64,000 nt of DNA from assembly GCA_964016885.1 (NCBI GenBank), contig OZ024746.1, positions 85,064,001 through 85,128,000 of the forward strand, written 5' to 3'. The translations under genes were made by a program, and so were the position numbers. The notes under the pieces were generated by a model, which saw nothing but the letters and a program-made list of their open reading frames with translations, ran no database searches and had not been told where the DNA came from. Of the stretch, positions 16,291 through 54,890 are shown piece by piece. This DNA is from Eledone cirrhosa (lineage: Eukaryota). Position 1 is the first letter of the stretch. Every line of letters begins with the position of its first letter.

Positions 16291-16379
<89 letters not shown>

Positions 16380-16504
16380 TAGGAGGTGAGTTTTATTGTA
16401 GTACAATAAAGCAATGCAGATATCGGATAAGAAGCACTCTACAGTTTGTAGGACTGGAGTATACATAATATATAAGAACAAAAGATGGTTAAAGGAGTTC
16501 CATG

Positions 16505-16575
16505 TATTTTATTATGCGCATTTCAAAAACAAATATCATCATGCAATAATATTTGTGTTTTCATCAGATAAAACA
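16505..16575 (-). ncRNA. Type I hammerhead ribozyme (minus arm)
   Basis: Reverse complement of 16691-16761; tcatcag at 16561-16567. Confidence 0.8.
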
Positions 16576-16690
16576 GGACATGATATGAAGGCTAAAAAAC
16601 ACTTGTGGATAGTTCAGTTTTAAATCAACATATGTTGATTTAAAACTGAACTATCCACAAGTGTTTTTTAGCCTTCATATCATGTCCTCC

Positions 16691-16761
16691 TGTTTTATCT
16701 GATGAAAACACAAATATTATTGCATGATGATATTTGTTTTTGAAATGCGCATAATAAAATA
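16691..16761 (+). ncRNA. Type I hammerhead ribozyme (plus arm)
   Basis: Stem I tgttttat/ataaaata; CTGATGA 16699-16705; long stem II; GAAA 16742-16745; palindromic stem III ATGCGCAT; triplet ATA. Confidence 0.8.
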
Positions 16762-16791
16762 CATGGAACTCCTTTAACCATCTTTTGTTCT

Positions 16792-16862
<71 letters not shown>

Positions 16863-54150: not shown

Positions 54151-54890
54151 TAAAACATGTCTTTAGAATCACTAGATATAATATATACCATTTCCTCTCC
54201 CAATTAGCATAATTAACCATATAAAAAATCAATTAGACCAAGCTATAAGAATAAAGGCTCCTATGAAGAAATCTCCGACAAATAACCGAAAGCAGCCCCT
54301 TCGCGGTGGCTACGATGTAGTATTTATCGAACATTTCGACAGCATGTAGAAATCGACCAGATATACAGTCAACCAAACACAATTAGGTGTAAAATCAAAC
54401 TTAGAAGAAATGCGTACATACCAAATTACCTCTACCATGGTTTCATCCGTATTTTAAGACATCCGATAACAGGGAATGTCCAGAGCTTCAGATTCATCAG
54501 GAGTGAACTCAAAATTAGACATTTAATTTTCCAAAGTGATCGCGTCAAAAATACATTCAAAAATGGCTAAGAATCGTGACGTGGCAGCGGTCAAGGTAGA
54601 AAGGATGTGATTAGTTGCTTACGGCGGGTAGGCTTATTGCTAGAAAACGCAGCCCAATATAGCCAAATTGTATCTCAACCTAACGGGAGATTATTACATA
54701 TAAAGGTTTACATATATATAAAGTCATAGATATATATATGTTTTGCAACAGGTCACGTTGTGGCTCAATGAAGAATTAATAAATTAATAGCTCTGATTAT
54801 TTAATTTATTAATTTTTCATTGAGCCACAACGTGACCTGTTGCAAAACACATATATATCTATGACTTTATATATATGTAAACCTTTATAT
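54149..54890 (-). mobile_element. TA-flanked HHR element with 5' inverted repeat 54698-54890
   Basis: Minus-strand HHR; ~90-bp arms ending at cctttatat|(AT)n. Confidence 0.75.
54428..54504 (-). ncRNA. Type I hammerhead ribozyme
   Basis: Minus: actc-CTGATGA-atctg...cggat-GAAAC-catg-GTA-gaggt; palindromic stem III ACCATGGT. Confidence 0.78.

Follow-up and report, generated by a model that had tools for sequence, protein, structure and literature searches.

A loopless palindrome in Eledone cirrhosa is a pLTR stub of a Hydra-clade Penelope-like element, probably inserted by twin priming

An inverted pseudo-LTR (pLTR) together with a tail on one side only is a published layout of Penelope-like element (PLE) insertions (PMC8557442, PMC3846280). 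The origin of the tandem and inverted ends of PLEs was named as an open question by Craig et al. in 2021 (PMC8557442), and self-priming on an antisense template has been proposed for the palindromes at PLE junctions (PMC3846280, Discussion). A 2014 paper (PMC4209133) already described, in Schistosoma, dual hammerhead motifs that lie on opposite strands and are separated by 100-700 bp. In vitro studies of the PLE PAc Poseidon identified two internal RT start sites that bound the tail, and found that both target strands are cut and extended and that hammerhead cleavage is dispensable (PMC11167929). For L1, an extra G marks capped full-length copies, and twin priming yields inversions (PMC11702581). 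A literature search found neither twin priming nor a cap mark stated for PLEs, within a coverage such that older Penelope papers and the supplements of PMC11167929 and PMC3846280 may state them.

The insertion layout and the clade of the element described here are therefore already known, and the family itself is new. The locus is an ordinary object whose value is that of a sample from a large natural experiment. What it adds are junction counts, which give a concrete alternative to self-priming and make the integration model testable.

Layout of the locus and its hammerhead motifs

The locus was found in a window of 64,000 nucleotides of E. cirrhosa contig OZ024746.1, the window being the whole stretch of DNA that was analysed. 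Arm-to-arm alignment places a palindrome of 337 bp at 16465-16801, with its centre between 16631 and 16632 (cat/atg). The arms have no mismatch from the centre outwards, and their sole difference up to 16465/16801 is one 3-nt gap, the right arm having an additional TCC. The left, minus-strand arm is ~85 nt longer and reaches 16377/16375. The initial annotation had described a loopless palindrome meeting at this centre, a hammerhead on each strand, and a TA-type end, and all three were confirmed. Its length of 335 bp differs only by the choice of where the TA run is cut, the series CTGATGA-helix II-GAAA-TGCGCA-TA runs outward in each arm, and (TA)n borders the palindrome at both outer ends. The features are as follows.

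16295..16374, no strand: (TA)n target microsatellite on the left, from the sequence
16377..16633, minus strand: arm with the tail; its pLTR starts at the ATATG hard stop (16633) and reaches the end of the tail (~16377)
16377..16464, minus strand: PLE 'tail' of ~85 nt, present in the minus-strand arm only
16507..16573, minus strand: type I hammerhead motif whose core starts at 16567; cut predicted after 16513
16630..16633, no strand: ATAT common to both arms, the first four bases of the pLTR and likely RNA 5' end; self-complementary junction
16630..16801, plus strand: arm lacking the tail; its pLTR extends from ATATG as far as the inner end point (cttatatattat), where it passes into (TA)n
16685..16690, plus strand: TCCTCC, of which one TCC is missing in the left arm; a recurrent single-arm slip
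16693..16759, plus strand: type I hammerhead motif, core 16699-16705, GAAA 16742-16745, predicted cut after 16753
16802..16856, no strand: (TA)n target microsatellite on the right, from the sequence

What is this palindrome? It consists of two back-to-back pLTR copies of a Hydra-clade PLE, left as a stub. The structure is not a product of chance, because a pattern search of the genome found 747 exact copies of its 28-nt centre and none of the reversed control. The locus is not a singular ribozyme switch, and is instead a Penelope-like retroelement stub, one of at least 747 with the same centre. A recent insertion had also been proposed. This is supported by two other loci, themselves selected as best matches, in which identity over the 255-nt arm is 100%. 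The 3-nt indel, which had been taken as a sign of age, is excluded as an age marker, since many unrelated loci show the same TCC loss in just one of their arms. The loss was seen in 20/29 tailed and 0/15 tail-less arms of a query-biased set, and in 3/79 tailed rows (two distinct loci) and 0/70 tail-less rows of an unbiased set.

Each hammerhead motif has a type I core comprising CUGANGA, GAAA, UH, and helices I and II. Helix I has six A-U pairs, and the pair 10.1-11.1 is A-U (G-U in one variant). Helix II is long, with up to 15 pairs including one mismatch, and both helices are present in the predicted fold (z of -2.1 and -1.7). CTGAYGA was kept in 157 of 158 rows selected by a pattern that itself demands most of the core, and the one other row was unrelated. 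Helix III is formed by the palindromic AUGCGCAU; the monomer leaves a 2-nt loop, and no stable monomeric helix III was found. Pairing of AUGCGCAU in a dimer is predicted at -12.5 kcal/mol. Cleavage is therefore predicted to be weak and to need a dimer or the help of a protein. A dimer cannot form in cis from one RNA because the two hammerhead copies are on opposite strands. Rfam at the gathering score gave no match within the 64-kb window, hammerheads included.

Either transcript of the palindrome had been said to contain a sense hammerhead and its antisense. This holds only for read-through RNA coming from outside. RNA that starts at the centre, the likely start site of the element, would carry one arm only. 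The predicted folds of full-palindrome RNA are hairpins of -278 and -271 kcal/mol, and the read-through hairpin (~-275 kcal/mol) is predicted to remove the hammerhead motif. With thousands of 170-bp inverted pairs in the genome, the family may give rise to double-stranded RNA and make DNA unstable.

The ribozyme cut was considered as a source of RNA 5' ends, prompted by three loci (L080, L094, L280), and was rejected. The 5' ends near the predicted cut numbered 308 genome matches, about one-tenth of the 100 listed being ATA slips, versus 231 at a single control site, which is no clear enrichment. That the cut site is not a 5'-end hotspot is in line with cleavage being dispensable in vitro (PMC11167929). 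The best explanation is that the hammerhead is a passenger of the pLTR and that its cut leaves no clear mark on insertions. Mini-palindromes in which both arms start at the predicted cut exist (L280/L281 at G000:C1:244900710-244900743, and L267); they are rare and unenriched relative to one control.

The window contains two further hammerhead-like motifs. An unrelated one at 54380-54540 on the minus strand (core at 54500) has CTGATGA, helix II, GAAA-CCATGG-TA, and a palindromic helix III, and is probably another Penelope-type pLTR. A weaker one at 2705-2800 on the plus strand (core at 2725) reads CTGATGA-GCAA...TTGC-GAAA-CAG-TA.

The parent element and its family

The 259-nt arm matched all 40 scored candidates (of 125) at 92-100%, and 16 of 30 fetched loci had an inverted partner with the same inner end point. 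The genome holds 11,893 exact matches to the tail end and 21,748 matches to the 3' half of the hammerhead. Longer copies extend upstream via a 3' UTR into a GIY-YIG-type endonuclease and RT. One locus carries an intact 800-aa RT and GIY-YIG ORF (L082:1074-3473) with a pLTR unit directly 5' of it, and in full elements the tail lies just upstream of the ORF. Read by motif, the ORF contains FDIASYY, YRDD, FLDV, and IYECKV...YFG. The element thus has the single ORF with RT plus a GIY-YIG-type endonuclease at its C-terminus that characterizes EN+ PLEs, along with a hammerhead in the pLTR and an inverted 5'-truncated copy with a one-sided tail. The 800-aa protein has 15 homologues at E <= 1e-20; Pfam gave no significant family for the parent ORF. 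Partial tandems of EN+ PLEs bear a pLTR at both ends, and here L061, L101, L102, L106-L108, L118, and L133 have one unit 5' of the ORF and another at the 3' terminus. The unit-to-unit length was 3.2-3.9 kb in seven of eight loci examined. Within the window, tblastn found no remnant of the parent ORF.

Assignment by motifs suggests that the element fits the Hydra clade of PLEs. The protein has HSDKTNN (DKT), CNCPIKNKC (CxCX5C), CNLCLNE (CxxC), and CLH (CxH), and CCHH is absent, judged by eye, as in the definition of that clade. The N-terminal RWK position reads RRLRWT or RRLRWI, RW being kept and K replaced. A (TA)n insertion preference is also apparent, as TA repeats follow 83 of 90 sampled tail ends.

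Other diverged Hydra-type RT ORFs adjoin copies of the family (L067 and L070, both on the minus strand), so several related families are present. At ~905-1000 of L082, the tail holds an upstream ORF of ~30 codons that ends before the main ORF, and the tail-less end point coincides with its ATG. Two stubs 6.2 kb apart (L004 and L006, G000:C28) have an identical upstream flank, likely through a segmental duplication, and another two loci (L091 and L092) likewise have a common junction.

Ends, junctions, and the route of integration

Copies of the family have two fixed 3' ends ~85 nt apart, and insertions nearly always carry one of each. Among loci with a perfect centre, 30/35 had one tailed and one tail-less end, and the other five had one arm cut short. 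Among 50 long loci inspected by eye, the same pair was present in all 25 that showed both outer ends. For 90 tail ends sampled consecutively along C1, 39 partner arms were identified, of which 37 were tail-less, and both arms were tailed in 2/39 pairs; partners were sought within 420 nt only, which favours short ones, and 51 of the 90 loci had no short partner in range. Either arm can bear the tail: it is the long one in L062 and L063 and the short one in L067, L124, and L137. Because the targets are (TA)n, empty sites and target duplications are unreadable. One arm is cut short or interrupted in 8/35 perfect-centre loci (L144, L145, L194, L195, L197, L198, L199, L201), which would fit palindrome instability.

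At the other end of the arms there is a hard stop at ATATG. Of the 90 tailed arms, 52 extend that far and 24 end there, as do 26 of 39 partners. In the whole genome, 5,457 matches begin at ATATG after a non-native letter, versus 231 for a control window of four bases. The stop of an arm at ATATG does not depend on the end point of its partner. Furthermore, the arms shared no sequence in 5/39 pairs. The 5' ends of the arms are thus independent, because non-overlapping arms cannot come from copying one arm off the other. Microhomology contributes to the ATATG hotspot, since ATAT also fits the TA target. ATATG is likely the RNA start site.

Does the RNA carry a cap at this site? In 41 of the first 100 listed cases, counted by hand, G replaced the native C before ATATG, as opposed to an expectation of 21% (p 8e-6) and a hand count of 11/100 at a control junction flank. 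At 135 loci the G is on both arms; among the first 50, linkers were non-palindromic in 18, and the commonest double-G linker was AT (24/50). We inspected 44 G arms, drawn from 160 loci partly chosen for having G. In these, A came next in 31, and at least 3 letters of the internal CATATCATG were matched in 21. Six of the 44 could use the native C of the partner, several join at native TATC sites, and about five, by eye, had no other source of G. The extra G is therefore partly explained without a cap, internal templating explains the AT double-G linkers well, and an RNA cap at ATATG is only favoured.

The two arms of a locus resemble each other. In perfect-centre loci they differ by 0.7%, versus 6.2% between loci, and in 13 long two-armed loci the values are 1.1% and 2.0%. 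Of the locus-private changes, 12 were in both arms and 45 in one. This likeness could reflect a single template, fold-back, or conversion between arms at a later time.

Taken as a whole, the locus is best explained as a two-armed pLTR insertion made by twin priming, a reading that we consider probable. In this model, each strand of a (TA)n tract is nicked by the endonuclease of the element. One sense RNA would then be reverse-transcribed twice, from fixed internal sites at ~nt 175 and 260, and both reactions would run to its likely capped 5' end at ATATG. We infer that the two cDNA ends then anneal via the self-complementary ATAT, giving a loopless palindrome with the tail on one arm; the centre would be loopless because the first four bases of the pLTR are self-complementary. 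Short arms would result from priming within the 5' pLTR of the RNA or on a short RNA from a solo pLTR. We would give even chances to the wider proposal that twin priming from two fixed internal sites of a capped sense RNA, also within its 5' pLTR, is the normal route of PLEs, recorded by the thousands of stubs in this genome. If true, a single step would account for the tail as well as for the inverted pLTR and the palindrome at the junction, the antisense self-priming model would be replaced, and the start site would have been mapped without RNA data. There would also be divergent start sites at the centre of each palindrome, and read-through RNA would form a 170-bp duplex.

Self-priming, the published reading of PLE junction palindromes (PMC3846280, on rotifer Penelope), is the main competing model. 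Here the cDNA or antisense template would fold at CATATG or at the internal CATATCATG and be copied to the inner end point. The model accounts for near-identical arms that share private changes, and some junctions do link the ATATG end to an internal CATATCATG site (L296, L316). However, it does not readily account for the non-overlapping arm pairs (the 5/39 above), a tail possible on either arm, an ATATG stop of each arm that is independent of the stop of its partner, or non-palindromic linkers. A hairpin with zero loop is also sterically poor. The junction evidence favours twin priming over antisense self-priming, which we regard as possible and clearly the less probable of the two.

Could the short palindrome be a mobile non-autonomous unit, similar to a retrozyme or a SINE, that is copied whole from masters while its hammerheads process the RNA? 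The 747 identical centres would suit such a unit, non-LTR retrozymes have been reported to derive from PLEs and to be non-autonomous (bioRxiv 10.64898/2026.07.22.740005), and solo copies could still provide short templates. However, the junctions vary widely, arms match within a locus and not left-with-left across loci, and ends do not cluster at the ribozyme cut. The head-to-tail tandem of short hammerhead units that defines non-LTR retrozymes was not found; the arrangement is head-to-head, in the 35 perfect-centre loci as well. A palindrome-only subfamily was sought among the five pLTR variants and none was found, each variant being present both with native upstream DNA and as arms starting at ATATG. 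The mobile-unit explanation is unlikely.

The initial annotation had called for raw-read validation, and this succeeded at the level of the family. Two short-read contigs of run X2, possibly the same sample as the assembly, span the centre; each covers 33-44 letters per side, with 2-6 letters differing. In three other samples, raw reads cross the tail-less end at 16460 from TA repeats, and those of one of these samples stop at 16630/16633. No read joins the palindrome to its unique flanks, the repeat and the TA flanks preventing locus-specific assignment. The family-level palindrome structure is real and is not a fold-back artefact of the family; with its centre at 747 loci and its tail end found 11,893 times, the structure is neither unique nor such an artefact. 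That an assembly or library fold-back produced the studied locus itself is very improbable: sequencing is difficult for long palindromes flanked by TA runs and the locus is unconnected to its flanks by reads, but its arms differ by the indel and the tail and end in different flanks, the same architecture with a fixed end rule recurs at hundreds of loci, and the bridged centre and the ends seen in other samples agree with it. Runs X4 and X6, which have other organism labels, contain pLTR pieces with native upstream DNA at low depth.

Comparison with described elements

The family resembles insertions of EN+ PLEs (PMC8557442, PMC3846280) in its head-to-head pLTRs, its tail at one end, its junction palindrome, and its AT-rich targets. 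It differs in that the whole insertion at this locus is pLTR only, the tail is ~85 nt versus 30-40, and one junction position is dominant. In addition, thousands of copies here allow junction statistics.

Among the PLEs, the Hydra clade including Hydra-1_Obim (PMC8557442) has the same RW, DKT, CxCX5C, CxxC, and CxH motifs, a C-terminal EN, a hammerhead, and (TA)n. By eye, the 800-aa ORF resembles Hydra-1_Obim along its length. The two are nevertheless different families, as hammerhead and peptide strings had 0 matches in the supplement of that paper. Compared with the clade as described in the available text, RWK is changed to RWT or RWI, the unit is 3.2-3.9 kb versus <3 kb, and the pLTR is clear.

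Like other PLE hammerheads (PMC4209133), the motif is of type I, with a small palindromic helix III, a long helix II, and a predicted dimer. Its 10.1-11.1 pair is A-U and not the usual G-C, and its helix II is longer.

In PAc Poseidon (PMC11167929), two internal RT start sites likewise bound a tail. However, it belongs to another clade, and its tail is inside the ORF, whereas here it is upstream of the ORF. The available text of that paper gives no derivation of inverted arms or of their junction.

Finally, the proposed route resembles L1 twin priming (PMC11702581), in which the other target strand primes a second time, producing an inversion that is joined by microhomology, and complete 5' ends show an extra G. 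In L1, priming takes place at poly(A) and at an internal site that varies, and there is hardly any overlap of the arms, whereas in this family both priming sites would be fixed and the arms usually duplicate each other.
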